Below, piece after piece: positions 18,603 through 54,575 of a stretch of DNA of 64,000 nt. Origin of the DNA: a plasmid; the NCBI RefSeq assembly GCF_053078305.1, contig NZ_CP166875.1; one strand, written 5' to 3'. The notes beneath the pieces were generated by a model. It made no database searches. It saw nothing but the letters and a program-made list of their open reading frames with translations, and had not been told where the DNA came from. Position 1 is the first letter of the stretch, and every line of letters begins with the position of its first letter. The translations under genes and the position numbers were made by a program.

Positions 18603-20561
18603 ATGTCAGTAACAAAGTCTGAACCAAAATCTACCCGTAAAGCAAGCCGTAAACTTGCAAAAACGCAGGAAACTGTCCTGTCTGCCCTGCTGGCGCAGAC
18701 GGAGGAAGTGAGCGTGCCGCTGGCCTCACTGATTAAATCACCGCTGAATGTGCGCACGGTGCCGTATTCTGCGGAGTCCGTCAGTGAACTGGCTGATTCC
18801 ATTAAGGGAGTCGGCCTGCTGCAGAATCTGGTCGTGCATACCCTGCCTGGTGACCGTTACGGTGTCGCCGCAGGTGGTCGCCGACTGGCAGCACTCAACA
18901 TGCTGGCAGAGCGTGGCATCATTCCGGCTGACTGGCCTGTCTGTGTGAAGGTCATTCCGCAGGAACTGGCGACTGCCGCATCAATGACTGAAAACGGTCA
19001 TCGTCGGGATATGCACCCTGCCGAACAGATTGCCGGATTCCGTGCAATGGCGCAGGAAGGCAAAACACCTGCACAAATCGGTGATTTGCTGGGCTATTCA
19101 CCCCGCCACGTTCAGCGAATGCTGAAACTGGCAGACCTTGCACCTGTCATCCTTGATGCGCTGGCAGAAGACCGCATCACCACAGAGCACTGTCAGGCGC
19201 TGGCGCTGGAGAACGACACCGCGCGTCAGGTGCAGGTGTTTGAAGCAGCCTGCCAGTCGGGATGGGGTGGTAAACCGGATGTGCGGGTTATCCGCAACCT
19301 GATTACGGAAAGTGAAGTGGCGGTGGCGGGGAACAGTAAATTCCGCTTCGTGGGGGCTGATGCCTTCTCGCCAGACGAACTGCGCACCGATTTGTTCAGC
19401 GATGACGGGGACGGTTATGTCGACCGCGTGGCGCTCGATGCCGCCCTGCTGGAAAAACTCCAGGCTGTCGCTGAACACCTTCGGGAAGCCGAAGGCTGGG
19501 AATGGTGCGCCGGACGTATGGAGCCTGTCGGTTCCTGCCGTGAGGATGCCGGAACATACCGCAGCCTGCCGGAGCCGGAAGCGGTGCTGACGGAAGCTGA
19601 AGAAGAACGCCTGAACGAACTGATGACGCGCTACGACGCGCTGGAAAACCAGTGTGAGGAATCTGATCTGCTGGAAGCAGAAATGAAGCTGATGCGCTGC
19701 ATGGCGAAGGTCAGGGCGTGGACGCCGGAGATGCGTGCCGGAAGCGGTGTGGTGGTGTCCTGGCGTTATGGCAACGTGTGTGTCCAGCGTGGTGTGCAGT
19801 TGCGCAGCGAGGATGACGCGGCTGCCGACGCTGACCGCACGGAACAGGTGCAGGAGAAAGCGTCAGTGGAGGAAATCAGTCTGCCACTGCTGACGAAAAT
19901 GTCTTCCGAACGCACGCTGGCAGTCCAGGCGGCACTCATGCAGCAACCGGACAAATCTCTGGCACTGCTGGCATGGACGCTCTGCCTGAATGTGTTTGGC
20001 AGCGGAGCGTACAGTAAACCAGCACAAATCAGCCTGGAATGTAAACATTATTCGCTGACCAGCGATGCGCCATCGGGGAAGGACGGTGCCGCATTCATGG
20101 CGATGATGGCAGAAAAAGCCCGTCTTGCTGCCCTGTTACCGGAGGGATGGGCACGGGACATGACGACGTTCCTGTCACTCAGCCAGGACGTGCTGTTATC
20201 ACTGCTCAGTTTCTGCACCGCGTGCAGCATCCACGGCGTTCAGACCCGCGAGTATGGTCACACGTCACGCAGTCCGCTGGACTCGCTGGAGAGCGCCATC
20301 GGCTTTCACATGCGTGACTGGTGGCAGCCGACAAAAGCAAACTTCTTCGGTCACCTGAAAAAGCCGCAGATTATCGATGCCCTGAATGATGCCGGACTGT
20401 CCGGTGCCGCACGGGACGCGGAGAAGATGAAGAAAGGCGATGCCGCTGAACATGCAGAGTTCCACATGAAAGACAACCGCTGGGTGCCTGGCTGGATGGG
20501 TTCACCACGTCCACAGACGGATGCCACTGAACGCGCCGATAACCTGGCTGATGCCGCCTGA
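18603..20561 (+). CDS. ParB-like nuclease-domain protein, 652 aa (leading-region protein)
   Basis: N-terminal region (SLIKSPLNVRTV...LLQNLVVH...GGRRLAAL) resembles the ParB/Srx N-terminal domain; position between ssb and psiB as in F-like plasmids. Confidence 0.8.
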   Translation: MSVTKSEPKSTRKASRKLAKTQETVLSALLAQTEEVSVPLASLIKSPLNVRTVPYSAESVSELADSIKGVGLLQNLVVHTLPGDRYGVAAGGRRLAALNMLAERGIIPADWPVCVKVIPQELATAASMTENGHRRDMHPAEQIAGFRAMAQEGKTPAQIGDLLGYSPRHVQRMLKLADLAPVILDALAEDRITTEHCQALALENDTARQVQVFEAACQSGWGGKPDVRVIRNLITESEVAVAGNSKFRFVGADAFSPDELRTDLFSDDGDGYVDRVALDAALLEKLQAVAEHLREAEGWEWCAGRMEPVGSCREDAGTYRSLPEPEAVLTEAEEERLNELMTRYDALENQCEESDLLEAEMKLMRCMAKVRAWTPEMRAGSGVVVSWRYGNVCVQRGVQLRSEDDAAADADRTEQVQEKASVEEISLPLLTKMSSERTLAVQAALMQQPDKSLALLAWTLCLNVFGSGAYSKPAQISLECKHYSLTSDAPSGKDGAAFMAMMAEKARLAALLPEGWARDMTTFLSLSQDVLLSLLSFCTACSIHGVQTREYGHTSRSPLDSLESAIGFHMRDWWQPTKANFFGHLKKPQIIDALNDAGLSGAARDAEKMKKGDAAEHAEFHMKDNRWVPGWMGSPRPQTDATERADNLADAA

Positions 20562-20615
20562 TGAACAACCACACCGCCCCGCCGGAGACGGGGCGGCAGC
20601 AAGGGAGATACCGTG

Positions 20616-21050
20616 ATGAAAACTGAACTGACCCTGAATGTATTACAGACCATGAGCGCACAGGAATATGAAGATATCCGGGCTGCCGGAAGTGATGAAC
20701 GCCGTGAGCTGACACACGCCGTGATGCGGGAACTGGATGCGCCGGACAACTGGACGATGAATGGCGAGTACGGCAGCGAGTTCGGCGGCTTTTTCCCCGT
20801 CCAGGTCCGTTTCACGCCTGCCCACGAACGTTTTCACCTGGCGTTATGTTCACCGGGCGATGTCTCTCAGGTCTGGGTGCTGGTTCTGGTGAATGCCGGT
20901 GGTGAGCCGTTTGCGGTGGTTCAGGTGCAGCGGCGGTTTGCACCGGAAGCTGTCAGCCATTCACTGGCACTGGCGGCATCACTGGATGAACAGGGATACA
21001 GCGTCAGTGACATCATCCATATCCTGATGGCGGAAGGAGGTCAGGCATGA
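20616..21050 (+). CDS. psiB: Plasmid SOS inhibition protein B
   Basis: Translation [46 protein letters not shown]... recognised as PsiB (144 aa). Confidence 0.93.
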
Positions 21051-21766
21051 GCGCACGTTCACAGGCACTGGTTCCTCTCAGCACAGAGCAACAGGCCGCA
21101 TGGCGGGCGGTGGCGGAGACAGAAAAACGCCGCCACCAGGGTAACACGCTGGCGGAATATCCGTATGCGGGGGCGTTTTTCCGCTGTCTGAACGGAAGCC
21201 GCAGGATTTCGCTGTCTGACCTGCGATTTTTCATGCCGTCCCTGACCGCAGAAGAACTGCGCGGCAACCGTTCTCAGTGGCTGTATGCCGTCGATGTGCT
21301 GATTGAAACACAGGGCGAGGTCTGCCTCCTTCCCCTTCCCGGTGATGCAGCAGAGCGGTTGTTCCCGTCGGTGCGGTTCCGTGTCAGGGAACGCAGTCGC
21401 CATAAATCCGTGCTGGTCATGCAGAAGTACAGCCGCCAGCAGGCACGGGAGGCAGAGCAGAAAGCCCGTGCGTACCAGACGCTGGTCGCTCAGGCTGAAA
21501 TCGAACTGGCGTTCCATTCACCGGAAACAGTCGGAAGCTGGTATGCACGCTGGAGTGACCGGGTGGCAGAGCATGACCTGGAAACCCTGTTCTGGCAGTG
21601 GGGTGAGCGTTTTCCGTCACTGGCCGGGATGGAACGCTGGCAGTGGCAGGATATGCCATTCTGGCAGGTCATCGCAGAGGCAGGTATGGCAGCAAGGGAG
21701 GCGGGTCACGCTGTCCGTGAGATGGAGCGGTGGATGGTGCCGAACAAACTCCGGGAGGCGGCGTGA
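21047..21766 (+). CDS. psiA: Plasmid SOS inhibition protein A
   Basis: 239-aa ORF overlapping the psiB stop, the canonical psiB-psiA arrangement. Confidence 0.88.
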
Positions 21767-22077
21767 AGTGGCGTTACTCATTGCGCTGGAAACTGCCTTC
21801 TCCCTGTCCTGGCGAGCATGAACTGGTTTCAGAAGTGGTGGAGGCGGGGCAGCCTGCACCGGCATCCGTTATGTCACGCTGGGTTGCCGGAGCAGGGTAT
21901 GCGGTCTGTCTGGATTTTATTTCTGACCGCCCGGTGCGCCGCTGGAGCGAAGAACGTAAGGCTGCGGTACGGCGGCGGAATCTGGAGAAACGTATCAACA
22001 GGCATGCACCACTGTTTGCGGATGAACTGATTGCCCGTGAACTGGCTGAACGACCGGATTATTTTCAGGGAAAGTGA
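21730..22077 (+). CDS. Hypothetical protein (up to 115 aa) overlapping the psiA 3' end
   Basis: ORF only; true start uncertain (possibly GTG near 21763). Confidence 0.4.
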   Translation: MDGAEQTPGGGVKWRYSLRWKLPSPCPGEHELVSEVVEAGQPAPASVMSRWVAGAGYAVCLDFISDRPVRRWSEERKAAVRRRNLEKRINRHAPLFADELIARELAERPDYFQGK

Positions 22078-22189
22078 GTGTGGTCAGTACGCAGGTATAT
22101 GGGCTATGATGTGCCCGGCGCTTGAGGCTTTCTGCCTCATGACGTGAAGGTGGTTTGTTATCCTGTCGTGTGGCAGAAGGACAAAAGCC

Positions 22190-22260
22190 CCGTAGTTAAT
22201 TTTTCATTAACCCACGAGGCCTCTGCATGTCTAGTCCACGTCAGTATGGCCTCTTACCGT
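22190..22260 (-). ncRNA. sok: Putative Sok-type antisense RNA of the hok/sok (flm) system
   Basis: Inferred from position: antisense to the mok/hok leader, as in F flmB/hok-sok; exact ends not determinable from sequence alone. Confidence 0.4.
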
Positions 22261-22442
22261 GCAAATTGCAAGGAGGAGTAAACCATGAAACTACCGGGAA
22301 ACGCCCTTATCTGGTGCGTATTAATCGTGTGCTGCACGTTGTTGATATTCACACTCCTGACCCGGAATCGCCTGTGCGAAGTCCGGCTGAAGGACGGATA
22401 CAGGGAAGTTACGGCAACAATGGCTTACGAATCCGGCGGTAA
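22227..22442 (+). CDS. mok: Mok-like overlapping reading frame (modulator of killing) of the hok/sok locus
   Basis: 71-codon ORF in a different frame overlapping hok. Confidence 0.5.
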
Positions 22443-22446
22443 GTAG
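22285..22446 (+). CDS. hok: Hok/FlmA-type small membrane toxin (53 aa)
   Basis: Translation [53 protein letters not shown], typical Hok family sequence. Confidence 0.9.
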
Positions 22447-22726
22447 CAACCTGGAGGCGGGCGCAGGCCCGCCTTTTCAGGGCTGATGCTGGTCTGACTG
22501 CACTGAAGCGCCTTTATAAAGGGGCTGCTGGTTCGCCGGTGGCCCCTTTCTCCTTGCTGGCATTGTAGCAGCATGAACAACCAGACTGTCAGGAAGGCCA
22601 CTTCCCTCCGGGAACGGGAATGAACGTGCGCCTGCGGCGCTCGTTCTTTTCCCCCGCCTTCTCTGTTTATGGCCAGTTGTCAGAAATGACATTACCTTTC
22701 CCGTGATTATTCTCTTTTTCTTCCTG

Positions 22727-23357
22727 CTCTGATTCTGACTACTGCAGTGTTGTCCTGTCTGCCGGGCGCACCTTCGGCTCCCGGCTGCCTGGCGGCATCC
22801 GGTCGTCAGGCCCGACTCCGACAGGCAGCTGCTGGCGCACCTGCCAGTCTCCGCCGAACCCGCTGGCGCGGTTTCGGGCTGCCGCTACGGTCCGATGCGT
22901 GAAAACCCCGGGCTTGCAGCGACCGTTCCGGTCGCGCCGCCTCTGTCGCGCCGTGGCCTGCGCTCCCGGCATCCCGGCAAAAAGACGCCGGGATGTAAGG
23001 CGCAACGCCGTTTCGCAAACCGCGCTTCACGTCGTTGCGGCGGGTCCCTGCCCGTTGTTCTGTCCGGTGCCATTCACCTGTTTAAGCCCCTGTCGCCGGG
23101 GGCTGATACAGCCACAACCTGCCGCACTGACTGTCCAGGGTAAATGAACAGCCCACAAAATTTTTTACCCAAAACCCGGTAAAAAATTTTGCGTTCTGCC
23201 CAGGACAGGTGCGTCAGGCCGTGGCAGTGATGCCCCATGCGGCGAAGGTTCTCAAACAGGTGATGGTGAATACCGGAGGGAACAAAAGGCAGGTCCCCGC
23301 AAAACGTCAAAACCGCGGCTCCCGAAACTCAACAGATGATGGGGGCTGAAAACATCA
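22727..23357 (+). repeat. Frpo/ssi-like repeat element, copy 3
   Basis: Near-identical to copy 2; ends in the same conserved leader immediately upstream of the RBS of the 23373 ORF. Confidence 0.85.
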
Positions 23358-23372
23358 GATACAGGAGGAAAC

Positions 23373-23675
23373 ATGAGCGCATTTTCTTTTAACACCGCTT
23401 ATCAGCCAACAGGCGATCAGCAGAAAGACGCAATCGCACAAATCGACATCATGCAGAATCGTGCTGTTCAGGCAAATCTTGCATACCAGAGCAGCCTGGA
23501 TGCGGAAACGCTATTGAAACAGTTATGGCAAATCAATGATGAACTGGGGGAACTGTTGGATAGCGTGGAAAATCACACGCCAGTTATCAGAAAAAAAGCC
23601 AGTGATTTGAGCGCACTGATGATGCTTTTCAGCCAACAGGCCGGTCAGCCTATGACTATGTTGTTGATTTGTTAA
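23373..23675 (+). CDS. Hypothetical protein, 100 aa, downstream of repeat copy 3
   Basis: ORF with RBS AGGAGGAAAC 5 nt upstream of the ATG. Confidence 0.6.
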   Translation: MSAFSFNTAYQPTGDQQKDAIAQIDIMQNRAVQANLAYQSSLDAETLLKQLWQINDELGELLDSVENHTPVIRKKASDLSALMMLFSQQAGQPMTMLLIC

Positions 23676-23715
23676 TGATAATCAGGGGCAGGAAATTAAG
23701 CGAAAGATGCTCTGC

Positions 23716-23810
23716 CCCGGGTTTGCAGCGACCGGAACGGTCACTCCACCCTTGTCGCGCTGTGGCCTGCGGCGGCTCCCGAAACTCAACCGATGATGGG
23801 GGCTGAAAAC
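23716..23810 (+). repeat. Truncated Frpo-like element (copy 4, internally deleted)
   Basis: About 95 bp joining an early segment of the repeat (cccgggtttgcagcgaccggaacggtc...cttgtcgcgc.gtggcctgcg) directly to the conserved 3' leader (gcggctcccgaaactcaaccgatgatgggggctgaaaac). Confidence 0.7.
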
Positions 23811-23830
23811 CAGAGAGAGGAGAAAGCAGG

Positions 23831-24118
23831 ATGAGTACCCGAAATATCCACGTTAACACCGCGTCGTACACGCTTCTTGTTGCCGGGAAGAAAAAAAACA
23901 CCGGGGAAGAGTGGGACGTCCTGGAATTCAGCAGCCTGACTGAGCTGAAAAAATATCGCAAAAGCCACCCGGAAAAGATGGCCTTCAGCTATAGCTACGC
24001 GCTCAGCCGGGGTGTGGATACGCAGTTCCGCCATATCAACATTGCGGAAGCCGATCACTTCAAACAGTTCCTGCGTCAGATTAAGCGTACCGGCCTCGAT
24101 ATCCGGGCGATCTGCTGA
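23831..24118 (+). CDS. Hypothetical protein, 95 aa
   Basis: ORF with RBS GAGAGGAGAAAG upstream, directly after truncated repeat copy 4. Confidence 0.6.
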   Translation: MSTRNIHVNTASYTLLVAGKKKNTGEEWDVLEFSSLTELKKYRKSHPEKMAFSYSYALSRGVDTQFRHINIAEADHFKQFLRQIKRTGLDIRAIC

Positions 24119-24236
24119 CCGGATGTGATGAATATCCCTCCTGATTGTTGCAATCTTGTTAATGGAGACCGGGAGGGATGATATTAAGCGGAAAAATTTT
24201 TTATTAAATTTATTCTTTCATAAAGGAGTAGCTGTT

Positions 24237-25058
24237 ATGCGATTAGCTTCCCGTTTTGGTCGGTATAATTCCATTCGCCGTGAGCGTCCTTTAACGGATG
24301 ATGAATTAATGCAGTTTGTGCCTTCGGTATTTTCCGGTGATAAACATGAATCCCGGAGTGAGCGTTATACATATATTCCAACAATCAATATCATCAATAA
24401 GTTACGTGAAGAAGGTTTCCAGCCGTTCTTTGCATGTCAGAGTCGGGTTCGGGATTTGGGACGCCGCGAATACAGTAAACATATGTTACGTCTTCGCAGG
24501 GAAGGGCATATTAACGGGCAGGAAGTTCCTGAAATTATCCTGCTTAATTCACATGATGGTTCATCCAGTTATCAGATGATCCCCGGAATTTTTCGTTTTG
24601 TCTGCACAAATGGTCTGGTGTGCGGAAATAATTTTGGCGAAATCCGCGTTCCACATAAAGGCGATATTGTCGGGCAGGTTATTGAGGGAGCGTATGAAGT
24701 GCTCGGTGTCTTTGATAAGGTCACTGAAAATATGGAGGCGATGAAAGAAATACATCTTAACAGTGACGAGCAACATTTATTTGGCAGAGCTGCACTGATG
24801 GTCAGGTATGAAGATGAAAATAAAACACCAGTGACGCCTGAACAAATAATTACTCCCCGTCGTTTGGAGGATAAACAGAACGATCTCTGGACAACCTGGC
24901 AGCGGGTTCAGGAGAATATGATAAAAGGTGGACTGTCGGGGCGAAGTGCCTCCGGTAAAAATACCAGGACAAGAGGCATTACGGGTATTGATGGTGATAT
25001 CCGAATCAACAAAGCATTATGGATGATTGCCGAACAGTTCAGGGAGTGGAAGTCATGA
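24237..25058 (+). CDS. Hypothetical leading-region protein, about 273 aa (possibly DUF932-like)
   Basis: ORF 24156..25058; likely start MRLASRFGRYNS at 24237 with RBS AAAGGAG upstream. Confidence 0.65.
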   Translation: MRLASRFGRYNSIRRERPLTDDELMQFVPSVFSGDKHESRSERYTYIPTINIINKLREEGFQPFFACQSRVRDLGRREYSKHMLRLRREGHINGQEVPEIILLNSHDGSSSYQMIPGIFRFVCTNGLVCGNNFGEIRVPHKGDIVGQVIEGAYEVLGVFDKVTENMEAMKEIHLNSDEQHLFGRAALMVRYEDENKTPVTPEQIITPRRLEDKQNDLWTTWQRVQENMIKGGLSGRSASGKNTRTRGITGIDGDIRINKALWMIAEQFREWKS

Positions 25059-25355
25059 TAATATAAGTAAAGCCCCGAAAATTTTTTCGGGGCTTTACTT
25101 ATATTATCATTATGCGGCATTGATATGTCGTCTGAGATGCCTCAATTTCATCAACTGGCTTTTCGGTAGTCTGTAAATATTGTGCCCGCGAAAAATGGTC
25201 TGGCAGGAGGCTGCGCAGTTACCGGATATATATAAGATGGGTTCCCGCTTTGCGGGGCTTCGGCCAGTCAGCATTATCACTCATATGATATTTTTGTGTG
25301 TGGCCTTCCATGCCGCGTTTGCGGCATAACCGGTTTTTTTAAAATGTATATCAAA

Positions 25356-25865
25356 TTAATTCTTCTGCGAGCTGTTCATTTTTGAAAGCGGTTTTTCAGA
25401 TGCACGAAGCTGGATCCCCTTGCTGTTTTTTATCCCGCTGTAAATCCGGTAAACATCTGATGCATAGGCAAGACGCCGCTGGTTCTGACGTTCGGTTTTC
25501 CTGAATCCTGCGTTGTATGCACCAACAGCCTCCCAGGAGACTCCCCATTTTTTAAAGGCTATAGCCAGATAATAAGCACCGGTATAAATGTTCAGACAGG
25601 GATCTGCTGTCAGATGTTCCGGTTTAATTCCGTAGCGGGCCAGTTCGTTAAAATGCTGGGAATCTACCTGCATAAGTCCACTGCCATATCCCGTAACCGG
25701 ATTAATACCGATGGCATTAACCCGGTTACGGGATTCTTTCCATGATATTGCTCTCAGCAAGTCAGGGTCAATTTTATAATCTCTGCCAGCCAGATCAAAG
25801 CAATCACCAGCCTTGCAGGTCACATTTATAAACATCAGGCAGATCGTCAGAAGCCATTTTCTCAT
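25356..25865 (-). CDS. Lytic transglycosylase (orf169 / gene X-like, SLT domain), 169 aa
   Basis: Translation from [11 protein letters not shown]...; contains [14 protein letters not shown] and GLMQV motifs of soluble lytic transglycosylases; adjacent to oriT as in F. Confidence 0.88.
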
Positions 25866-25919
25866 TTTCTCACCTCTGGTGACGTCATCAGGAAATAATT
25901 TAACCCACTCCACAAAAAG

Positions 25920-26275
25920 GCTCAACAGGTTGGTGGTTCTCACCACCAAAAGCACCACACACTACGCAAAAACAAGTTTTTGCTGATTTTCGTTTAATAT
26001 CATTGAGTTGTATTTGCGGATTTATATTGTTTAAATCTGATTTATTTAAAACAGCGTCGTTAACGCCGCTACAGCAACGCGCAGACACCGCTTTTTAGGG
26101 GTGGTACTGACTATTTTTATAAAAAACATTATTTTATATTAGGGGTGCTGCTAGCGGCGCGGTGTATTTTTTTATAGGATACCGCCAGGGGCGCTGCTAG
26201 CGGTGCGTCCCTGTTTGCATTATGAACTCTGGTGTTTCTAAATTAACTTTATTTTATGTTCAAAAAAGGTAATTT
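25920..26275. other. oriT: Origin of transfer (oriT) with nic region and TraM-binding repeats
   Basis: Minus-strand reads TTTGCGTAGTGTGTGGTGCTTTTGGTGGTGAGAACCACCAA, an F/R100-like nic sequence with adjacent inverted repeat (about 25930-25975); repeated GCTGCTAGCGG motifs at about 26141-26160 and 26196-26210 resemble TraM binding sites. Confidence 0.8.
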
Positions 26276-26278
26276 CTA

Positions 26279-26662
26279 ATGGCTAAGGTGAACCTGTATA
26301 TCAGCAATGATGCTTATGAAAAAATAAATGCGATTATTGAGAAGCGTCGACAGGAAGGGGCAAGAGAAAAAGATGTCAGTTTTTCAGCAACAGCTTCAAT
26401 GCTTCTTGAACTGGGGCTTCGTGTATATGAAGCTCAGATGGAGCGTAAAGAGTCCGCGTTTAATCAGATTGAGTTTAATAAATTACTTCTTGAATGCGTT
26501 GTAAAAACACAATCATCAGTAGCGAAAATTTTGGGTATTGAGTCTCTCAGTCCTCATGTTTCCGGGAATCCAAAGTTTGAATATGCCAATATGGTTGAAG
26601 ATATCCGGGAGAAGGTGTCATCTGAGATGGAACGATTTTTTCCAAAAAATGATGAGGAATAA
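26279..26662 (+). CDS. traM: Relaxosome accessory protein TraM
   Basis: 127-aa translation MAKVNLYISNDAYEKINAIIEKRRQEGAREKDVSFSATASMLLELGLRVYEAQ recognised as TraM. Confidence 0.93.
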   Translation: MAKVNLYISNDAYEKINAIIEKRRQEGAREKDVSFSATASMLLELGLRVYEAQMERKESAFNQIEFNKLLLECVVKTQSSVAKILGIESLSPHVSGNPKFEYANMVEDIREKVSSEMERFFPKNDEE

Positions 26663-26779
26663 AAAAGAATTAAAAGTTGATTTTATTCAAATAACAGAAT
26701 ATTGATCTAGTTCTATTTGATGACAATTAACCACATAACGAGTATATTAATTATGTGGTTAATGCCACGTTAAAATTTG

Positions 26780-26860
26780 AACTTGAAAATCGCCGATGCA
26801 GGGAGGGACTAGCTCCCTGCATCGACTGTCCATAGAATCCTTTGAGGAGGTTCCTATGTG
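26780..26860 (-). ncRNA. finP: Putative FinP antisense RNA (complementary to the traJ leader)
   Basis: Perfect stem GATGCAGGGAG...CTCCCTGCATC at 26795-26823 and a second hairpin spanning the traJ RBS; position matches FinP in F-like plasmids; exact ends inferred. Confidence 0.5.
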
Positions 26861-27056
26861 TGCGATGGATACTAGAGAAAGAGCACTCATACGTCAATCA
26901 GGCCTGCCGGAAATTATTTTATCCGCAAAATATCCAGTCTGTGTCCGCACAGAGTCAGGAAAATTCATAGACTCAAACTCTGTTTTTTTACACTCAATAA
27001 AGTGTCAGAATTGTGATTCTGAAATAGTAAGCGTCAACGGAGCACCGTATTGACGC

Positions 27057-28670
27057 TTATTTATTGGTGAGTACTACGTTCCATGGCAGGAGTTCATCAA
27101 CTCGGTTGGAAGGCCATTCTGGCAGTACGCTCAGGATATGGCGCAGATACGCTTCCGGATCGATACCGTTCAGACGGCAGGTGCCGATCAGCCCGTACAA
27201 CAGTGCTCCACGCTCGCCGCCGTGATCGCTGCCAAAGAACATAAAGTTTTTCTTTCCGAGACAGACTGCACGAAGCGCTCTTTCCGCAGCATTATTATCC
27301 GCCTCCGCCAGACCGTCATCACTGTAATAACAGAGGGCATCCCACTGATTCAGTACATAGCTGAACGCTTCGCCCAGTCTGGATTTTTTCGACAGCGTAC
27401 CATTCTTCTCCACCATCCATTCATGCAGTGACGTCAGTAACACTTTGCTTCGCTGCTGCCTGACGGCAAGACGCTCTGACTCCGGTAATCCCCGTATTTC
27501 ATCCTCGATGGCGTACAGTTCACTGATTCGCTTCAGGGCTTCTTCTGCCGTCGCACTTTTGCTGCTGATGTATACATCGTGGATTTTTCGCCGGGCATGG
27601 GCCCAGCACGCAACTTCTGTCAGTGCACCACCTTCACGTTCTGCACTGAACAGCCGATCGTAACCGCTGAACGCATCCGCCTGCAGGATACCCCGGAAGG
27701 GACGAAGGTGTTGTACCGGATGTTTTCCCTGCCTGTCTGGTGAGTAGGCGAACCAGACCGCCGGTGGCTCTGATGAGCCCGCATTCCGGTCATCCCGGAC
27801 ATACGTCCAGATGCGTCCTGTTTTTGCCTTTTTTCTGCCCGCTGCCAGCACTTTTACTGGTGTGTCGTCAGTGTGAACCTTGCGGGTGTTCATCACGTAA
27901 CGGTACAGGGTATCATTCAGCAGAGTCATTAACTGACAACATGCGTCAACCCAGTTGGAGAGTAATGCCCGGCTCAGTTCGATGCCCTGGCGGGCAAAGA
28001 TTTCACTCTGACGATACAGTGGCAGGTGTTCGCAGTATTTTCCCGTTAACACGCGGGCAAGTAATCCGGAGCCCGCGATGCCGCGCTCTATCGGGCGGGA
28101 CGGCGCTGGCGCTTCAACTATACAGTCACATTTTGTACAGGCTTTTTTTACCCGAACAGTGCGGATCACTTTCAGGGCGCTACTCACCAGTTCCAGCTGC
28201 TCAGCACTGACTTCCCCCAGATAATCCAGCTCACTGCCACACTCCGGGCAACAACTTTCTTCAGGCTCCAGACGGTGTATTTCACGGGGAAGATGTGCCG
28301 GTAACGGACGACGATGACGTGACTGTCGCAACTGGCGGGGAACCTGCGGGTCATCCTCACGCCCACTGTAACGATCGCTTTCCTGTTCGCGTTGTTTCAG
28401 TTGGGCCTCAGCCTGTTCAACCTCACGCTGCAGTTTTTCAGAACGGGTACCGAACAACATCCGGCGCAGTTTTTCTATCTGGGCCCTCAGATGTTCTATT
28501 TCCCGCTCCTCCTCTTCGATCTTTTCCTCGGCACGTGCCAGTGCAGAGCGCAGGAAGGCCTCCGTCTCTTCAACCAGACTCAGTTGCTGATCTTTCTGAC
28601 GGAGGGCTTCAGCCTGCTCAGAGAGCAGCCTTTCCAGCTCAGTGATACGAATGAGGTATTTCCGACTCAT
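27057..28670 (-). CDS. IS66-family transposase TnpC (orf3), 537 aa
   Basis: Large ORF with N-terminal coiled-coil/leucine zipper and a central cysteine-rich segment (CPECGSEL, CTKCDC) typical of IS66 transposases. Confidence 0.88.
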   Translation of the reverse strand: MSRKYLIRITELERLLSEQAEALRQKDQQLSLVEETEAFLRSALARAEEKIEEEEREIEHLRAQIEKLRRMLFGTRSEKLQREVEQAEAQLKQREQESDRYSGREDDPQVPRQLRQSRHRRPLPAHLPREIHRLEPEESCCPECGSELDYLGEVSAEQLELVSSALKVIRTVRVKKACTKCDCIVEAPAPSRPIERGIAGSGLLARVLTGKYCEHLPLYRQSEIFARQGIELSRALLSNWVDACCQLMTLLNDTLYRYVMNTRKVHTDDTPVKVLAAGRKKAKTGRIWTYVRDDRNAGSSEPPAVWFAYSPDRQGKHPVQHLRPFRGILQADAFSGYDRLFSAEREGGALTEVACWAHARRKIHDVYISSKSATAEEALKRISELYAIEDEIRGLPESERLAVRQQRSKVLLTSLHEWMVEKNGTLSKKSRLGEAFSYVLNQWDALCYYSDDGLAEADNNAAERALRAVCLGKKNFMFFGSDHGGERGALLYGLIGTCRLNGIDPEAYLRHILSVLPEWPSNRVDELLPWNVVLTNK

Positions 28671-28700
28671 GACCGTTTTTATAATCCGGCCATGACATTT

Positions 28701-29051
28701 TTACAACATTGTCAGTGCATTAAGGCGGGATGTTTTGGGCTGACGCCAGTCCAGTTTATCGAGGAGCATTGCCAGCTGCGAGCGGGTAATGGATACCTTA
28801 CCGTCACGCACCGCAGGCCAGATAAACTGGCCTTCCTCCAGACGTTTGGTGAACAGGCACAGACCATCAGCATCAGCCCACAGAATTTTAATCGTGTCAC
28901 CCCGTCGGCCGCGAAAGATAAACAGGTGACCGGAGAAGGGGTTCTCATCCAGCACATGTTGTACCTGTTCTCCCAGACCGTTGAAGGATTTACGCATATC
29001 AGTAACGCCGGCAACCAGCCAGATTCGAGTGCCTGATGGGAGCGAGATCAT
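28701..29051 (-). CDS. IS66-family accessory protein TnpB (orf2), 116 aa
   Basis: Middle ORF overlapping orf1 (ATGA), typical IS66 organisation. Confidence 0.8.
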   Translation of the reverse strand: MISLPSGTRIWLVAGVTDMRKSFNGLGEQVQHVLDENPFSGHLFIFRGRRGDTIKILWADADGLCLFTKRLEEGQFIWPAVRDGKVSITRSQLAMLLDKLDWRQPKTSRLNALTML

Positions 29052-29473
29052 CGTCCCCTCCCGGTCAGTTCACGGATCAACACCGTGAGCAGCTCTGGTG
29101 AAGGATTTTCCAGCGTCATGTTACCGTGGCGGAACTCAACTTTACAGGAACTGGCACTGACTGTGCTTTGTGAAGGAGTGGATAAAAGCGGAGTAAGAGC
29201 CGCCACAGGCTCTTTCTGCTCATCAGGCGTTATCTCAACAGGTAATAATTCAACGCCAGCGCCAGAAGAGGTTGTTACCGGAAGACGCCGCGATATACGC
29301 CCTTCGTTCTGCCAGAGCCTGAGCCATTTGAACAGGAGGTTATCATTGATATCGTGTTCCCGGGCAATACGGGCAACAGAGGCTCCTGGTTGTGAAGCCA
29401 GTTTAACCATTTGAAGTTTAAACTCATTTGAAAATGATCTGCGGGGTTCTGAGGATAATATTTTCTGTTCCAT
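29048..29473 (-). CDS. IS66-family accessory protein TnpA (orf1), 141 aa
   Basis: First of three IS-internal ORFs; HTH-like N-terminus. Confidence 0.8.
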   Translation of the reverse strand: MEQKILSSEPRRSFSNEFKLQMVKLASQPGASVARIAREHDINDNLLFKWLRLWQNEGRISRRLPVTTSSGAGVELLPVEITPDEQKEPVAALTPLLSTPSQSTVSASSCKVEFRHGNMTLENPSPELLTVLIRELTGRGR

Positions 29474-30162
29474 AACAGGTGTCCACTAGTTGAAAAGGTG
29501 GGCACCTACGTTACCAATACTGGCTTAATGGCTACATACGGCGGTCAGTTTACGCTTACCTGAAATATGGTTTTCTGGTATTGATATTGATACGCAAATT
29601 TTATTTCAGACTGCTGAAGTTGATGCTTTTTCGTCCTCAAATGGAGTGAGCATTATTAATGGTGTAATATTGAATGATGTATCATGGGATGTGGTGATTG
29701 AAAGTACCGAAGTGAATGACTTGAATTTGTTTGTCTGGAGATTTTTCGAAAGATACGTAGTTAGTAGCTTTTTTATAAAGGGCAAGGAGTTTTGTTGTGA
29801 ATCTGACAAATATCGCTTTAATAAGATAATACCGTATCTTTTGGGTTATAGTCATGAGTATTCTGCTCAGAGAATGGATGTCTCTATTGACCAGTCTAAA
29901 AAAATATTTATGAATTTTAAAAAACACTATGGTTTCTCAGACAGGGATGAGTGGTTGCGATATGCTATAATTTCTGATGTGTTATTTTATCTATATCAAT
30001 ACTTCGCTAGTAATATTAACAACCTTCACCGCAAAGAAATGTAAGTATTCCCGGCACTAAAAGTGCCGGTTTTTGTTAACGTAATTTACTCTTTTGTTGT
30101 TTGTTTTGTGTGCGTCTTATGTAAATATTTTGACTAAATCTCTTTTATGTACGGGAGGTGTG

Positions 30163-30390
30163 GTGATCAAAGGTGCTTTAAGAGCTGCTCCAAGTAGAAA
30201 GGTTTTACTGACCCTTGATGAGGCAACCAATAAATTATTACTTGGAGCCAGAGAGCGCAGTGGAAGAACGAAAACAAATGAAGCATTGGTGAGGTTGCAG
30301 GATCATTTGCAACGTTATCCAGATTTTTATAACGAAGAGATATTCAGGGAGGTGACAGAAGAGAGAGAATCAACTTTTAAAGAACTTTAG
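30163..30390 (+). CDS. traY: Relaxosome accessory protein TraY (R100-like short form, about 75 aa; GTG start inferred)
   Basis: Ribbon-helix-helix-like sequence (RSGRTKTNEALVRLQDHLQRYPDFYNEEIFRE); GGGAGG RBS at 30153-30158; start codon uncertain. Confidence 0.7.
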   Translation: MIKGALRAAPSRKVLLTLDEATNKLLLGARERSGRTKTNEALVRLQDHLQRYPDFYNEEIFREVTEERESTFKEL

Positions 30391-41637: not shown

Positions 41638-42180
41638 ATGCGCAACAGTAAAGTGCAACTTGTATCAATCCTCAGACAGGTCAGTCTTTCACTGAACACG
41701 GAGCCATTACGACAGTTTATCTCTCTGAGGGAGATTGCAGAAGAGACGGATCACGTCGCTGCTCGTTTGTCCGGAGGAAAACGGGTAACACCTGCACAAA
41801 TTTATGAATTGTGTGCACAGTTATGGATGGCCAGGATGAAGGCAGTTGAAGTTTATGGGCGACATTCTGATGTGGTGATGTCTCTGGAAAGACAGACTGA
41901 TTTACTTGAGGCTGCAGGCAACGTATTAAAACAACGCTGGTTTTACCGTCCGTGGGGATCATCAAAAGCATCTGTGATGCTGACAGGTATACTGGTGATC
42001 CCCGTATTTCTGGTTTTATCCGGATTGTTGAGTGCAGGGTATCCCGGGTTATTATGTATTACCGTATCCGGCTGTTATTTTTCCGGGATTGCCGCTTTTT
42101 CTTTGCGGGCTAAAGATCCAGTCGGGCTTTGCTGGTCTGTGTTCTGTTTTATTCTGCTATATCTGCTCCTGAAAAAATGA
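41638..42180 (+). CDS. Hypothetical membrane protein (about 180 aa), non-canonical ORF after traU
   Basis: ORF 41611..42180; C-terminal TM helices; low GC. Confidence 0.55.
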   Translation: MRNSKVQLVSILRQVSLSLNTEPLRQFISLREIAEETDHVAARLSGGKRVTPAQIYELCAQLWMARMKAVEVYGRHSDVVMSLERQTDLLEAAGNVLKQRWFYRPWGSSKASVMLTGILVIPVFLVLSGLLSAGYPGLLCITVSGCYFSGIAAFSLRAKDPVGLCWSVFCFILLYLLLKK

Positions 42181-42182
42181 GA

Positions 42183-42974
42183 TTAATTATTCTGCGTCTG
42201 AATAATGAATGCTCCGCCATTGCGATGTACTCTGAATCCATTGGGATGCCTCCTGCAGGAGAACAGTCTGTAGCGGGTTTTTCCCCCATACCTCAGATTC
42301 AGGACAATAGTTTCACAGAGTGGCGTCTTCCTTGCCTTTTCTTTATATAGTATACCTTTTTTTTTCAGGTTATTAGCTATTCTGTTTCGGATTCCGTGGC
42401 GCAGGATGTGAGACTGTAATGTGATCGTGTTATAAGACGGATAGCATAATATGAAATGTTCAATATTTCCGACAAGCTTGTCTGCGTTGATTCTTGAGGA
42501 TACTTTGACAGATGGTCTGGTAATATATTGTGGATGTATATCGATTCTCAGGCTGGATATAAAGGGGGTAAGATAAAGACCCGTAACAGGCGTTCTGAGC
42601 ATGGACGATGAGAAAAAGAACAGAAAAAACCATAGTGTAATTACAGATATCCCTGACCTGATAATTACAGAGTATATGTTTCCGCTGAAAGGTGAATAAT
42701 CTTTTTGTATCATCAGATGTATGATGGATGACAGTAAAAACAAAATAAAGCCAGCCGGGAATGGTCTTCTCAGAACTCTGAAAAAGAGACTGTTATTTAT
42801 GAAGCGAAAACGAAGCAGGACCGTTAACAACAGCGATAAGAATATCAGTATTATGACCATTTGCACTCCGAAACTGATACATGAACAGATGTTTAAGGGT
42901 GATATTAAATGAGTGAAGGGACAAGAGTAAATGATTTTGCTTATGTCAAACAGGCCCTTTTGGCGGTGTTTCAT
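42183..42974 (-). CDS. Possible antisense-oriented polytopic membrane protein (263-aa ORF)
   Basis: 790-bp open frame in AT-rich DNA with no long plus-strand ORF across the same interval; very hydrophobic translation. Confidence 0.3.
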   Translation of the reverse strand: MKHRQKGLFDISKIIYSCPFTHLISPLNICSCISFGVQMVIILIFLSLLLTVLLRFRFINNSLFFRVLRRPFPAGFILFLLSSIIHLMIQKDYSPFSGNIYSVIIRSGISVITLWFFLFFFSSSMLRTPVTGLYLTPFISSLRIDIHPQYITRPSVKVSSRINADKLVGNIEHFILCYPSYNTITLQSHILRHGIRNRIANNLKKKGILYKEKARKTPLCETIVLNLRYGGKTRYRLFSCRRHPNGFRVHRNGGAFIIQTQNN

Positions 42975-43355
42975 CGGATGAATACCCGGCCGCTCACCAG
43001 GCTATGTGAAAAAGATGATATTCAGCGTGGAATTGCAGATATTCAATGGATGTTACATCATCACTATTATCCATCACCCGGACAGGTTTGTTTTATAATA
43101 TTTTTATTGCGGGATGAGAAGTTCCGGGTAGTGCGGGAAGATGGGCGTCAGTCATTCCTTGCAGTTGAAATTCAGTCGTTAATTGATGTTCTGAAAGATA
43201 TACGGAAATACCTGCAGTTTGTGACACGGTATGACTGTGATGGTTGTATTATCAGGCTGCATGCCAGTGCTGAACGTAAATACCTGTGGATTTTCCTTGA
43301 GTGTGTAATTGTGTTTATTTTGTGTGCTGTGCTGTTTTTTCTGATTATCTGTTAA
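42909..43355 (+). CDS. Hypothetical protein, 148 aa, C-terminal TM anchor
   Basis: ORF in low-GC insert. Confidence 0.5.
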   Translation: MSEGTRVNDFAYVKQALLAVFHRMNTRPLTRLCEKDDIQRGIADIQWMLHHHYYPSPGQVCFIIFLLRDEKFRVVREDGRQSFLAVEIQSLIDVLKDIRKYLQFVTRYDCDGCIIRLHASAERKYLWIFLECVIVFILCAVLFFLIIC

Positions 43356-43367
43356 AAACACCTGGTG

Positions 43368-43543
43368 GTGAACATGTACCCGGACAGCGGACAGCGGACA
43401 GCGGACAGCGGACAGCGGACAGCGGACAGTGCCATCCGTTCGGGCGCAGTGTGATGCGCCGGGAGACGGAAAAAAATCCGCCTGACACAAAGAAAAACTT
43501 CGGTTACCTGATGTGGCGTAAACGTAACTGTGTATTTCTGTAA
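43368..43543 (+). repeat. Duplicated 3' end of traU (remnant) with expanded GGACAGC heptamer array
   Basis: About 175 bp highly similar to 41490-41624 (traU 3' end), except that the heptamer GGACAGC is present in about 6 tandem units (43378-43422) versus about 2 in intact traU. Confidence 0.9.
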
Positions 43544-51735: not shown

Positions 51736-54575
51736 ATGAAGTCTATGTGATTGCCGGTGGTGAGTGGTTGCGCAATAACCTGAACGCCATTGCCGCTTTT
51801 ATGGGGACCCGGACGTGGGATTCCATTGAAAAAATTGCGCTCACATTATCTGTTCTCGCAGTGGCTGTGATGTGGGTACAACGGCACAACGTGATGGATT
51901 TGCTGGGCTGGGTGGCCGTGTTTGTGCTTATCAGCCTGCTGGTTAATGTCCGCACATCGGTGCAGATTATTGATAACAGTGACCTGGTTAAGGTTCACCG
52001 GGTGGACAATGTGCCGGTCGGTCTGGCGATGCCACTTTCACTGACGACCCGTATCGGGCATGCGATGGTGGCCGGCTATGAGATGGTGTTCGCTCAGCCG
52101 GACAGCGCCACCTACAGCAAGACAGGCATGCTGTTCGGGGCGAACCTGATTGTGAAAAGCACCGATTTCCTGTCCCGGAATCCGGAAATCATCAATCTGT
52201 TTCAGGACTACGTCCAGAACTGCGTGCTGGGTGATATTTACCTGAACCATAAATACACGCTGGAAGACCTGATGGCCTCCTCTGACCCGTACACCATAAT
52301 CTTTTCTCAGCCCAGCCCTTTACGTCAGGTGCCGAATAATAATTACAGTTTTCTGCAAAGCTCAGAGCCGTTTGTGTCCTGTAAGGACGCATCCGTCGGA
52401 CTGAAGGATAAGCTGAATTTTGATACGAATACCGGAGGCAAGACCTGGAATTATTATGTGCAGCAGATATTTGGCGGCAGGCCGGACCCTGACCTGTTAT
52501 TCAGACAACTGGTGAGTGACAGTTACAGTTATTTCTACGGCTCCAGCCAGTCTGCCAGCCAGATTATGCGCCAGAACGTCACCATGAATGCCCTGAAAGA
52601 GGGTATCACCAGTAATGCGGCCCGTAACGGTGATACCGCCAGCCTGGTGAATCTGGCCACCACCTCATCGATGGAGAAACAGCGTCTGGCACATGTCTCC
52701 ATTGGTCATGTGCTGATGCGAAACCTGCCGATGGTACAGACCATTCTGGTGGGCATTACTATTGGTATCTTCCCGCTCCTGGTGCTGGCTGCGGTCTTCA
52801 ACAAACTGACGCTGTCCGTCCTGAAAGGCTATGTGTTTGCCCTGATGTGGTTCCAGACTTGGCCGTTGCTGTATGCCATCCTGAACAGTGCCATGACATT
52901 CTATGCGAAGCAGAACGGGGCTCCGGTCGTGCTCTCTGAACTCTCTCAGATACAGCTGAAATACTCCGACCTGGCATCAACCGCAGGTTATCTTTCAGCA
53001 ATGATCCCCCCTCTGTCATGGATGATGGTACGAGGCCTTGGTGCCGGATTTTCCAGCGTATACAGCCACTTTGCGTCTTCTTCCATCACGCCAACCGCCA
53101 GTGCGGCAGGCAGTGTGGTTGACGGTAATTACTCCTACGGCAACATGCAGACGAATAACGTGAACGGCTTCAGCTGGAGCACCAACAGCACCACGTCATT
53201 TGGTCAGATGACGCACCAGACCGGTAGTGGTGCAACCGCCACGCAGACCCGTGACGGCAGTATGGTGATGGACGCCAGTGGGGCAATGTCCCGTTTGCCG
53301 GTTGGTATTAATGCAACGCGTCAGATTGCAGCAGCGCAACAGGAAATGGCCCGGGAGTCGATGAATAAGGCGGAAAGTGCCCTGCATGGTTTCAGCAGCA
53401 GTATTGCCAGTGCCTGGAACACACTCAGCCAGTTTGGCTCTAACCGGGGAAGCAGTGATTCAGTCACCAGTGGCGCTGACAGCACGATGAGCGCGCAGGA
53501 CTCCATGATGGCCAGCCGTATGCGCAGTGCGGTGGAAAGCTATGCGAAGGCGCATAATATCAGCGATGAGCAGGCGACAAGAGAACTGGCATCCAGAAGT
53601 ACGAGAGGTTCTGCGGGGATGTATGGTGATGCTCATGCTGAATGGGGGGTTAAACCTAAAATTCTTGGTGTTGGTGGTGGCGCAGGTGTCAGAGGTGGTG
53701 GTAGGACAAGTATTGACTGGAATGATGAGGATGCGCATCAGGCCAGCAGTGGTTCACGGGCCAGCCATGATGCCCGTCATGATATTGATGCCAGAGCTAC
53801 ACAAGACTTTAAAGAAGCAAGCGATTACTTTACCAGTCGCAAGGTCAGTGAATCCGGCAGCCATACTGACAATAATGCCGATTCCAGGGTGGACCAGCTT
53901 TCTGCAGCCCTGAACTCAGCGAAACAGAGTTACGACCAGTACACGACGAATATGACCCGCAGCCATGAATATGCTGAAATGGCCTCCCGTACTGAAAGCA
54001 TGAGTGGGCAGATGAGTGAAGACCTGTCACAACAGTTTGCACAGTATGTGATGAAACACGCGCCGCAGGATGCAGAAGCTATTCTGACAAACACCAGTTC
54101 ACCGGAGATTGCAGAACGTCGTCGGGCAATGGCCTGGTCTTTTGTTCAGGAACAGGTACAGCCTGGTGTTGATAACGCCTGGCGTGAATCCCGTGGCGAT
54201 ATCGGTAAAGGAATGGAGAGCGTACCTTCGGGCGGTGGCAGCCAGGATATTATTGCAGACCATCAGGGGCATCAGGGTATTATTGAGCAAAGAACGCAGG
54301 ACAGTAATATCCGTAACGATGTGAAGCAGCAGGTTGATAATATGGTCACAGAATATCGGGGCAATATCGGGGATACTCAGAACAGCATCCACGGCGAGGA
54401 AAATATTGTAAGAGGGCAGTATTCTGAACTGCAAAATCACCATAAAACAGAGGCATTATCTCAGAATAATAAATATAATGAAGAAAAATCAGCTCAGGAA
54501 GGAATGCCCGGTGCTGACAGCCCACAGGAACTTATGAACAGGGCAAAAGAGTATCAGGATAAGTATAAGCAATAA
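51732..54575 (+). CDS. traG: Mating-pair stabilization / entry-exclusion determinant TraG
   Basis: 947-aa ORF with N-terminal polytopic membrane domain, gene order. Confidence 0.93.
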   Translation: MNEVYVIAGGEWLRNNLNAIAAFMGTRTWDSIEKIALTLSVLAVAVMWVQRHNVMDLLGWVAVFVLISLLVNVRTSVQIIDNSDLVKVHRVDNVPVGLAMPLSLTTRIGHAMVAGYEMVFAQPDSATYSKTGMLFGANLIVKSTDFLSRNPEIINLFQDYVQNCVLGDIYLNHKYTLEDLMASSDPYTIIFSQPSPLRQVPNNNYSFLQSSEPFVSCKDASVGLKDKLNFDTNTGGKTWNYYVQQIFGGRPDPDLLFRQLVSDSYSYFYGSSQSASQIMRQNVTMNALKEGITSNAARNGDTASLVNLATTSSMEKQRLAHVSIGHVLMRNLPMVQTILVGITIGIFPLLVLAAVFNKLTLSVLKGYVFALMWFQTWPLLYAILNSAMTFYAKQNGAPVVLSELSQIQLKYSDLASTAGYLSAMIPPLSWMMVRGLGAGFSSVYSHFASSSITPTASAAGSVVDGNYSYGNMQTNNVNGFSWSTNSTTSFGQMTHQTGSGATATQTRDGSMVMDASGAMSRLPVGINATRQIAAAQQEMARESMNKAESALHGFSSSIASAWNTLSQFGSNRGSSDSVTSGADSTMSAQDSMMASRMRSAVESYAKAHNISDEQATRELASRSTRGSAGMYGDAHAEWGVKPKILGVGGGAGVRGGGRTSIDWNDEDAHQASSGSRASHDARHDIDARATQDFKEASDYFTSRKVSESGSHTDNNADSRVDQLSAALNSAKQSYDQYTTNMTRSHEYAEMASRTESMSGQMSEDLSQQFAQYVMKHAPQDAEAILTNTSSPEIAERRRAMAWSFVQEQVQPGVDNAWRESRGDIGKGMESVPSGGGSQDIIADHQGHQGIIEQRTQDSNIRNDVKQQVDNMVTEYRGNIGDTQNSIHGEENIVRGQYSELQNHHKTEALSQNNKYNEEKSAQEGMPGADSPQELMNRAKEYQDKYKQ

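Follow-up and report, generated by a model that had tools for sequence, protein, structure and literature searches.

IS682 is inserted within traJ between two copies of an 8-bp target sequence

The locus described here lies in a 64-kb stretch of plasmid DNA (called the window below) and raises the question of what becomes of conjugation when traJ is interrupted by an insertion sequence. An earlier note on this DNA had claimed that a 2533-bp IS66-type element sits in traJ between perfect 8-bp duplications. The octamer CTGAAATA was found at 27019 to 27026 and again at 29560 to 29567, and the segment between these copies (27027 to 29559) is 2533 bp long, in exact agreement with the claim. The octamer occurs only nine times on the plus strand of the window, and the chance of finding it at one given pair of positions is about 1.5e-5; the copies that lie flush with both ends of the element are therefore not due to chance. 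The ends themselves are 24-nt inverted repeats located at the tnpC end (27027 to 27050, GTAAGCGTCAACGGAGCACCGTAT) and at the tnpA end, which faces traY (29536 to 29559). These repeats are imperfect, with 20 of 24 positions complementary (83%), and both begin with GTAAGCG; no longer inverted repeat was present in the region.

Three intact genes were identified on the minus strand of the element, each scoring above its NCBIfam cutoff, as expected of an IS66-type element: tnpC (27057 to 28670), which encodes a 537-amino-acid IS66-family transposase (NF033517; 442.7 bits, cutoff 180), and the accessory genes tnpB (28701 to 29051, 116 amino acids; NF033819; 121 bits, cutoff 50) and tnpA (29048 to 29473, 141 amino acids; NF047595; 85.5 bits, cutoff 74). 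They are consecutive in the order tnpA-tnpB-tnpC, with the tnpA stop and the tnpB start overlapping by 4 nt, which is the layout of the IS66 family, and they run opposite in direction to traJ and traY. By nucleotide matching, the complete element on the minus strand is 99.7 to 99.8% identical to RefSeq-annotated copies of IS682, a name that rests on the RefSeq label of a near-identical copy, "IS66-like element IS682 family transposase." Its intact open reading frames and perfect duplication suggest that the copy in traJ is probably still active.

A close match is the IS682 copy in the chromosome of the O157:H7 strain TR01 (NZ_CP033605.1, 1345548 to 1348080), which is identical at 2529 of 2533 nt (99.84%). 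That copy likewise measures 2533 bp, has GTAAGCG termini and the tnpA-tnpB-tnpC layout, and carries its own 8-bp duplication. The 4 differing nucleotides, which in the window read 27364A, 27842C, 29206C, and 29302C, lead to 4 amino acid differences, 2 in TnpA and 2 in TnpC, and TnpB is identical. The O157:H7 copy lies elsewhere: it interrupts a second IS66-family tnpC and is flanked by copies of GAGAAAGA. Matches to chromosomal IS682 run 6 nt past each end of the element, which hinted at a shared target or at mis-set boundaries; this was ruled out, since GAGAAAGA and CTGAAATA are similar but different and the 2533-bp boundaries are the same.

traJ is split after codon 57 and is uninterrupted in closely related plasmids

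The 5' fragment of traJ (26856 to 27026, plus strand) begins with the ATG at 26856, comprises codons 1 to 57, and is 100% identical to residues 1 to 57 of TraJ from pFHI_NMBU_11_02. Codon 57 (ATA) ends at 27026, directly at the left end of IS682, which places the break where the earlier note had put it. The interrupted reading frame continues into the element for eight codons (VSVNGAPY) and stops at 27051 to 27053, 27 nt beyond the left end. Reading resumes in phase at 29568, also as claimed, and the 3' fragment (29568 to 30044, plus strand) holds codons 58 to 215 and the stop at 30042 to 30044. It differs from the pFHI_NMBU_11_02 protein by one amino acid, which results from a single nucleotide change at 29661. 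When IS682 and one octamer are removed, a 215-codon frame is restored; its product reaches 480.2 bits with the NCBIfam TraJ equivalog NF010276 (cutoff 444) and matches over residues 1 to 215 of 215. The two fragments thus come from a single traJ gene. The gene is also positioned as traJ should be, with traM on one side, traY on the other, and the FinP antisense gene overlapping its leader; it does not contain an intact traJ coding sequence, owing to the 2533-bp element after codon 57. The replicon is an F-like (MOBF12A) colicin B/M plasmid, and IS682 jumped into codons 55 to 57 of its traJ with duplication of CTGAAATA.

The earlier note had proposed alignment to an uninterrupted allele, and such an empty site is present in public plasmids. 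Both pFHI_NMBU_11_02 (NZ_CP045714.1, TraJ WP_044783688.1) and CP027641.1 share the traJ allele group NF010276 and the traM-traJ-traY context with the window, and both have an uninterrupted traJ with a single CTGAAATA. The rejoined traM-traJ-traY DNA differs from these plasmids by 1 mismatch in 1660 nt (99.9%), and the two window blocks aligned to pFHI_NMBU_11_02 overlap by exactly 8 bp, which is the duplication. Among the PLSDB plasmids with this traJ allele group, traJ is in one piece in 247 of 249.

These data also bear on whether the insertion could be an artefact, in which the assembler placed an IS copy in traJ by mistake. IS682 is present in multiple copies in many E. coli genomes (median of 4 matching places per genome), and such repeats are open to mis-joining. 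A mis-join, however, would not yield a perfect 8-bp duplication at both termini together with flanks that are collinear and in phase, and the four differences from the reference copy are private to the element in traJ. We consider an artefact exceedingly improbable.

Sequence comparisons support a recent insertion

Apart from IS682, the DNA from 25488 to 29661 is identical to that of the traJ-intact reference plasmid. Over the roughly 30 kb from 29560, in the right-hand octamer, to the traI start at 59330, the two plasmids are separated by 10 substitutions and 2 small indels. None of the tra genes shows decay, the open reading frames of the element are intact, and the element is 4 of 2533 nt away from another IS682 copy. 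The claim of the earlier note that the event was recent is borne out by these observations, which support an insertion that is recent on the scale over which this plasmid lineage has diverged. The same insertion was sought in public collections. In PLSDB, the sole record covering the region is 90% identical and has a different architecture; among the complete E. coli genomes of RefSeq, matches extended no farther than the IS plus 12 nt. The 34-nt left junction had 0 exact matches in GTDB species representatives, and exact look-ups of the 65- and 85-amino-acid junction peptides returned no record.

traJ is the sole damaged tra gene in the window

Upstream of the insertion, traM is intact (26279 to 26662, plus strand; 127 amino acids; NCBIfam TraM equivalog NF010267, 231 bits, cutoff 104) and its product is 100% identical to TraM of pFHI_NMBU_11_02. 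A consensus scan identified a promoter-like site on the plus strand at 26720 to 26748 (ATGACA, a 17-nt spacer, and TATATT; 10 of 12 matches), which, from its position upstream of the traJ leader, we infer to be PJ. The traJ 5' untranslated region, the target of FinP, is intact at 26753 to 26861 (plus strand; Rfam RF00243 traJ_5, 124.7 bits, gathering threshold 50, full model), as is the FinP antisense RNA gene at 26786 to 26862 (minus strand; RF00107, 95.9 bits, gathering threshold 45, full model). The scan also placed a promoter-like site for the FinP strand at 26897 to 26869 on the minus strand. The FinP/traJ-leader module is thus unchanged. The position of finO falls outside the 64-kb window.

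Downstream of traJ, the traJ-traY intergenic region (30045 to 30162, plus strand; 35.6% G+C) is unaltered, with zero nucleotide differences from pFHI_NMBU_11_02. By analogy with R1 and F, PY is expected within this region (PMC7303359). Directly 3' of the traJ stop, at 30051 to 30079 on the plus strand, is a putative terminator, a hairpin with an 8-bp stem containing 6 G-C pairs that is followed by the T run TTTTTGTTAA. The first gene of the tra operon, traY, is intact (30163 to 30390, plus strand; TraY equivalog NF010300, 144.6 bits, cutoff 114) and its product is 100% identical to that of the reference plasmid. traM and the genes from traY to traD are full length, with 99.6 to 100% amino acid identity, and traI is intact up to the limit of the window. 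Seven unnamed open reading frames of the tra region matched no NCBIfam family.

Loss of TraJ is expected to leave the tra operon silenced

As interrupted, the gene encodes a TraJ cut to 57 native and 8 IS-encoded residues, and the remaining 158 traJ codons are cut off from the promoter, leader, and start codon. The locus can therefore yield no functional TraJ. In F-like plasmids, H-NS silences PY, the sole promoter known for the traY-traI operon, and TraJ and host ArcA are "absolutely required" to relieve this silencing (PMC7303359). Since TraJ and ArcA are needed against H-NS at PY in F and R1, silence of the operon is to be expected here as well: without TraJ, H-NS would keep the tra operon silent even though its genes are intact, and transfer would be very low unless a matching TraJ were supplied in trans or the silencing were lifted. 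Transfer deficiency of this plasmid fits the evidence, by extension from the published work on F and R1. We therefore regard it as very likely that a recent IS682 insertion caused loss of function of traJ, leaving the tra operon silenced and transfer very low.

A supply of TraJ from elsewhere would restore normal transfer. The earlier note had raised the possibility of an intact traJ elsewhere on the replicon; within the 64-kb window, tblastn with the reference TraJ matched just two abutting fragments and no second traJ. The visible part of the replicon is 64 kb only, and a second copy might lie beyond it. Several F-like plasmids often occur together in E. coli strains, so the protein might also come from a co-resident plasmid of the same specificity. 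Among the listed records with this allele, however, each has a single place for traJ. Moreover, activation by TraJ is allele specific and acts through a binding site in PY, so that only a matching allele would complement (PMC7303359). Taken together, normal transfer through a second TraJ source appears very unlikely.

The earlier note had also suggested that an outward promoter derived from the IS might drive traY-traI. In this scenario, the tnpA-proximal end of IS682 would provide an outward or hybrid promoter, the operon would be independent of TraJ, and conjugation would be constitutive or differently regulated. Outward or hybrid promoters are known from IS elements of several families (PMC3281130; PMC8764528), and the orientation seen here is shared by all IS66-family insertions observed in or near other tra operons (L003, L004, L005, and L008), although these number only four. 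The only plus-strand promoter-like sites found were the PJ-like site at 26720 to 26748 and a site at 29803 to 29830; none was found from 27027 to 29802 or across the right junction, in a simple consensus search that can miss weak or non-sigma-70 promoters. Manual reading of 29380 to 29600 revealed no pair of -35 and -10 elements with acceptable spacing. To reach traY, a transcript arising in the IS would need to run through roughly 490 bp of traJ 3' sequence and past the terminator-like hairpin, which itself spans 30051 to 30069. In addition, a trap-plasmid survey detected outward promoters for the IS3, IS5, and IS21 families and not for IS66 (PMC3281130). With no plus-strand site near the traY-facing end and a terminator-like hairpin in between, this alternative was not upheld, and we judge it very unlikely.

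The site at 29803 to 29830 lies within the traJ 3' fragment and matches the consensus at 10 of 12 positions. It is native to traJ and could give some TraJ-independent transcription toward traY. The same site would be present in intact traJ alleles.

Other forms of rewired control, as opposed to a simple knockout, can be envisaged. A weak promoter inside IS682 might read toward traY, or the inserted block, with a G+C content of 53% versus 34% for the displaced traJ DNA, might weaken H-NS silencing from its position about 0.6 kb upstream of PY. If silencing were weakened, the tra operon would be on without TraJ and outside FinOP control. IS66-family elements might also insert repeatedly, and always in this orientation, in the AT-rich traJ-traY region, having been selected as a switch that turns conjugation on and off. 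That the insertion rewires tra control in either of these two ways, or acts as a selected switch, seems to us hardly probable, and simple loss of traJ function remains the preferred reading.

Implications for annotation

From its gene content, with a full tra operon as well as a relaxase and a coupling protein, this colicin B/M IncF plasmid would be scored as "conjugative," yet it is probably unable to activate its tra operon. This is of consequence for annotation and epidemiology. The locus would represent a natural case of conjugation turned off by a single IS hop, and such a hop into traJ could cut the cost of plasmid carriage and the sensitivity to pilus-specific phages. The IS and the gene are both well known, and a traJ knockout by IS682 is an event of a kind that is already known; a specialist would expect this outcome, and no open mechanistic question is touched.

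Comparison with other IS insertions in F-like transfer regions

Among the open-access papers searched, there was no direct precedent for an IS-disrupted traJ in F-like plasmids. Four plasmids were found with an IS66-family element near traJ and were considered as signs of a shared insertion hotspot, which was rejected, since none has the element at the CTGAAATA site. In L004, the element lies between traL and traK, and traE is not annotated there; in L005, it is located downstream of traL and is followed in turn by an IS3-family element; in L008, it follows traK. The closest parallel is L003, the IncF plasmid pRHB12-C01_2 (CP057877.1), in which ISEc23, an IS66-family element about 93% identical to the IS682 in traJ, is inserted in the same orientation between traJ and traY, with the perfect 8-bp duplication ATTAGTCG. 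An 8-bp duplication is therefore common to three IS66-family copies, namely, those flanked by CTGAAATA, by GAGAAAGA in O157, and by ATTAGTCG. ISEc23 is inserted some 27 bp before the start codon of traY, in a different plasmid with a different traJ allele. That plasmid retains an intact traJ, but the element parts PY or the traY leader from traY. The classical F plasmid carries IS3 in finO, a natural inactivation of a fertility-control gene by an IS. The two events are opposite in effect: transfer is derepressed when FinO is lost but is expected no longer to be activated when TraJ is lost.

Results

The octamer CTGAAATA was read directly, and then checked by script, at 27019-27026 and 29560-29567, and the intervening segment is exactly 2,533 bp, as the earlier note had claimed. 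Since the whole window has just 9 copies of CTGAAATA on its + strand and two of these exactly abut the two ends of the IS, the pair is a target-site duplication and not a chance occurrence. The termini of the IS are imperfect inverted repeats (GTAAGCGTCAACGGAGCACCGTAT versus the complement of GTAAGCGTAAACTGACCGCCGTAT, matching at 20 of 24 positions), which an independent repeat search returned as the longest inverted repeat of the region. On its minus strand, the IS has intact ORFs for proteins of 141, 116, and 537 amino acids, the first two overlapping by 4 nt, and all three score above the NCBIfam curated thresholds for IS66 TnpA, IS66 TnpB, and IS66 transposase.

By megablast against plasmids and complete E. 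coli genomes, the IS is 99.7 to 99.8% identical to copies carrying the RefSeq annotation "IS66-like element IS682 family transposase," identifying it as IS682, a member of the IS66 family. Compared base by base, the IS and the chromosomal copy of E. coli O157:H7 TR01 (NZ_CP033605.1) differ at 4 of 2,533 nt, which amounts to two substitutions each in TnpA and TnpC and leaves TnpB unchanged. The TR01 copy is of equal length and has its own 8-bp duplication, GAGAAAGA, which confirms the boundaries used here; BLAST alignments run 6 nt into each flank of the IS because the window and TR01 target sites are similar by chance. No second copy of the IS was found in the 64-kb window. A perfect 10-bp hairpin (TAAGCGTCAA/TTGACGCTTA, 12-nt loop) at 27028-27059 overlaps both the inverted repeat at the tnpC end and the tnpC stop codon. 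A minus-strand promoter-like site at 27037-27010 (TTGACG, 16-nt spacer, CACAAT) crosses the left IS junction and is directed antisense into the traJ 5' fragment.

Upstream of traJ are traM (26279-26662) and a promoter-like site (26720-26748) at the position expected for the traJ promoter, PJ. The traJ 5' untranslated region (Rfam traJ_5, 26753-26861) and the FinP antisense gene (26862-26786) are both full-length Rfam matches well over the gathering score. traJ starts at 26856, and its codon 57 ends at 27026, after which the frame runs 8 codons into the IS to a stop. The frame picks up at 29568, past the second octamer, with 158 codons left before the stop at 30042-30044, so the split after codon 57 and the in-phase resumption are as first described. 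The rejoined TraJ of 215 amino acids matches the NCBIfam equivalog model NF010276 end to end (480.2 bits; cutoff, 444), demonstrating that both parts are from one gene. An intact traJ elsewhere would have told against the earlier reading; within the window, tblastn detected no TraJ other than the two abutting fragments.

The empty site was found in other plasmids. The rejoined 1,660-nt traM-traJ-traY segment is covered to at least 80% in a single uninterrupted place by 245 plasmids, the best two (99.9% identity) being CP027641.1 and the IncFIA/FIC plasmid pFHI_NMBU_11_02 (NZ_CP045714.1), whose annotation gives the gene as a TraJ family regulator. The sole difference between the rejoined segment and pFHI_NMBU_11_02 is a G/A at 29661, and the traJ-traY intergenic region is identical in the two. 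Aligned whole to pFHI_NMBU_11_02, the window forms two collinear blocks, 22609-27026 and 29560-64000, the ends of which share exactly 8 bp of that plasmid, the hallmark of a simple insertion. traJ is in one piece in 247 of the 249 PLSDB plasmids of this allele group, and one of the two exceptions is split merely by the record start; an interrupted traJ is therefore unusual for this allele. In two PLSDB plasmids, CP061257.1 (H108) and CP057604.1 (H140), the length of the traJ match deviates by 1 nt from 648 (647 and 649 nt, respectively), and neither match has a CDS entry, in tables that leave out pseudogenes. These may be frameshifted alleles, which would mean that traJ has been lost by a second route among plasmids of this allele group.

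The earlier note had also raised the possibility that an outward promoter in the IS drives traY. On the + strand, a promoter scan identified no promoter-like site within the IS or spanning its right junction, and no -35/-10 pair with usable spacing was seen by eye in 29380-29600. Moreover, the stretch separating traY from the IS contains a terminator-like hairpin followed by a run of T residues (30051-30079), and a trap-plasmid study reported outward promoters for members of the IS3, IS5, and IS21 families but not IS66 (PMC3281130). Because the promoter scan is crude, this explanation keeps a small probability.

All annotated pFHI_NMBU_11_02 proteins from the SLT transglycosylase gene through traI were searched against the window (tblastn) and found at full length with 99.6 to 100% identity; traI, at 98.7% identity, is intact as far as the window end. 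From 25488 to 29661, the IS apart, there are zero nucleotide differences from pFHI_NMBU_11_02. Across the roughly 30 kb that begin with the right-hand duplication (29560), immediately 5' of the traJ 3' fragment, and end where traI starts (59330), there are 10 substitutions and 2 indels, one a 7-bp intergenic indel and the other an in-frame 9-bp deletion in traD (58990) relative to pFHI_NMBU_11_02. The tra genes show no secondary decay, and with so few differences around the insertion and across these genes, the comparison indicates, as first proposed, that the insertion is recent on the time scale over which these plasmids diverged.

The remaining differences are mostly clustered in traI (region 60000-64000), which holds 66 of the 92 differing columns (substitutions plus gap positions) of the 34-kb tra alignment, which suggests that traI is a recombinant mosaic. 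Antisense RNAs over the Rfam gathering score lie on the minus strand inside traG (AS-traG, 52472-52557, 103 bits) and traI (AS-traI, 62179-62255, 106 bits). Between traU and trbC, a segment shared with pFHI_NMBU_11_02 (41638-43540) contains unnamed ORFs, including a 263-amino-acid minus-strand ORF (42183-42974), with no NCBIfam family match. It ends in a partial second traU 3' end (43356-43540; residues 281 to 330, the last 41 at 93% amino acid identity) and resembles a scar left by an old insertion.

Positions 394-9600 match, at up to 99.5%, the cba/cbi/cma/cmi module, site-specific integrase gene, and parM of colicin B/M E. coli plasmids, and on this basis the window is assigned to a ColBM-type IncF plasmid. 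In contrast, pFHI_NMBU_11_02, its closest tra-region relative, encodes colicins M and V and matches only 3607-4652 of this stretch. The leading region (9600-26000) contains ssb, psiB/psiA, and hok/sok, together with an approximately 630-bp repeat present three times (13736-14364, 17069-17725, and 22713-23357), the copies cross-matching those in pFHI_NMBU_11_02 at 93 to 99% identity. The third copy is a short way downstream of sok/hok (Rfam sok, 22116-22287).

Discussion

The IS insertion is real, and its first interpretation was correct. In F-like plasmids, PY, the only known promoter of the tra operon, is silenced by H-NS, and TraJ and host ArcA are "absolutely required" to overcome this silencing; the specificity of TraJ resides in a short site within PY (PMC7303359). 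Although the traJ-traY intergenic region is unchanged, the activator cannot be made from the interrupted gene: the stub of 57 plus 8 residues lacks most of the protein, and the 3' fragment is cut off from promoter, leader, and start codon. With no TraJ made, the operon is expected to stay silent, with a strong drop in transfer that a matching traJ supplied in trans should reverse.

Searches of PLSDB, RefSeq complete E. coli genomes, and GTDB representatives did not find the exact traJ::IS junction, and the exact junction peptides have no match in the protein collection, so that none of these sources yielded the traJ::IS682 allele of the window. The event is nevertheless of a known kind, an ordinary and recent gene knockout in which both the regulator and the IS responsible are well known. 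IS66-family elements occupy other sites in the IncF tra regions of four further plasmids, in the same orientation as the IS studied here, four cases being too few for a conclusion. The element lies between traL and traK in L004, where traE is not annotated, downstream of traL in L005, with an IS3-family element beyond, and after traK in L008. The fourth plasmid, pRHB12-C01_2 (CP057877.1), is typed "conjugative" by PLSDB on gene content. It carries the IS66-family element ISEc23 at 2850-5381 with a perfect 8-bp duplication, ATTAGTCG, about 27 bp 5' of the traY start codon, where it parts traY from the traJ-traY intergenic region.
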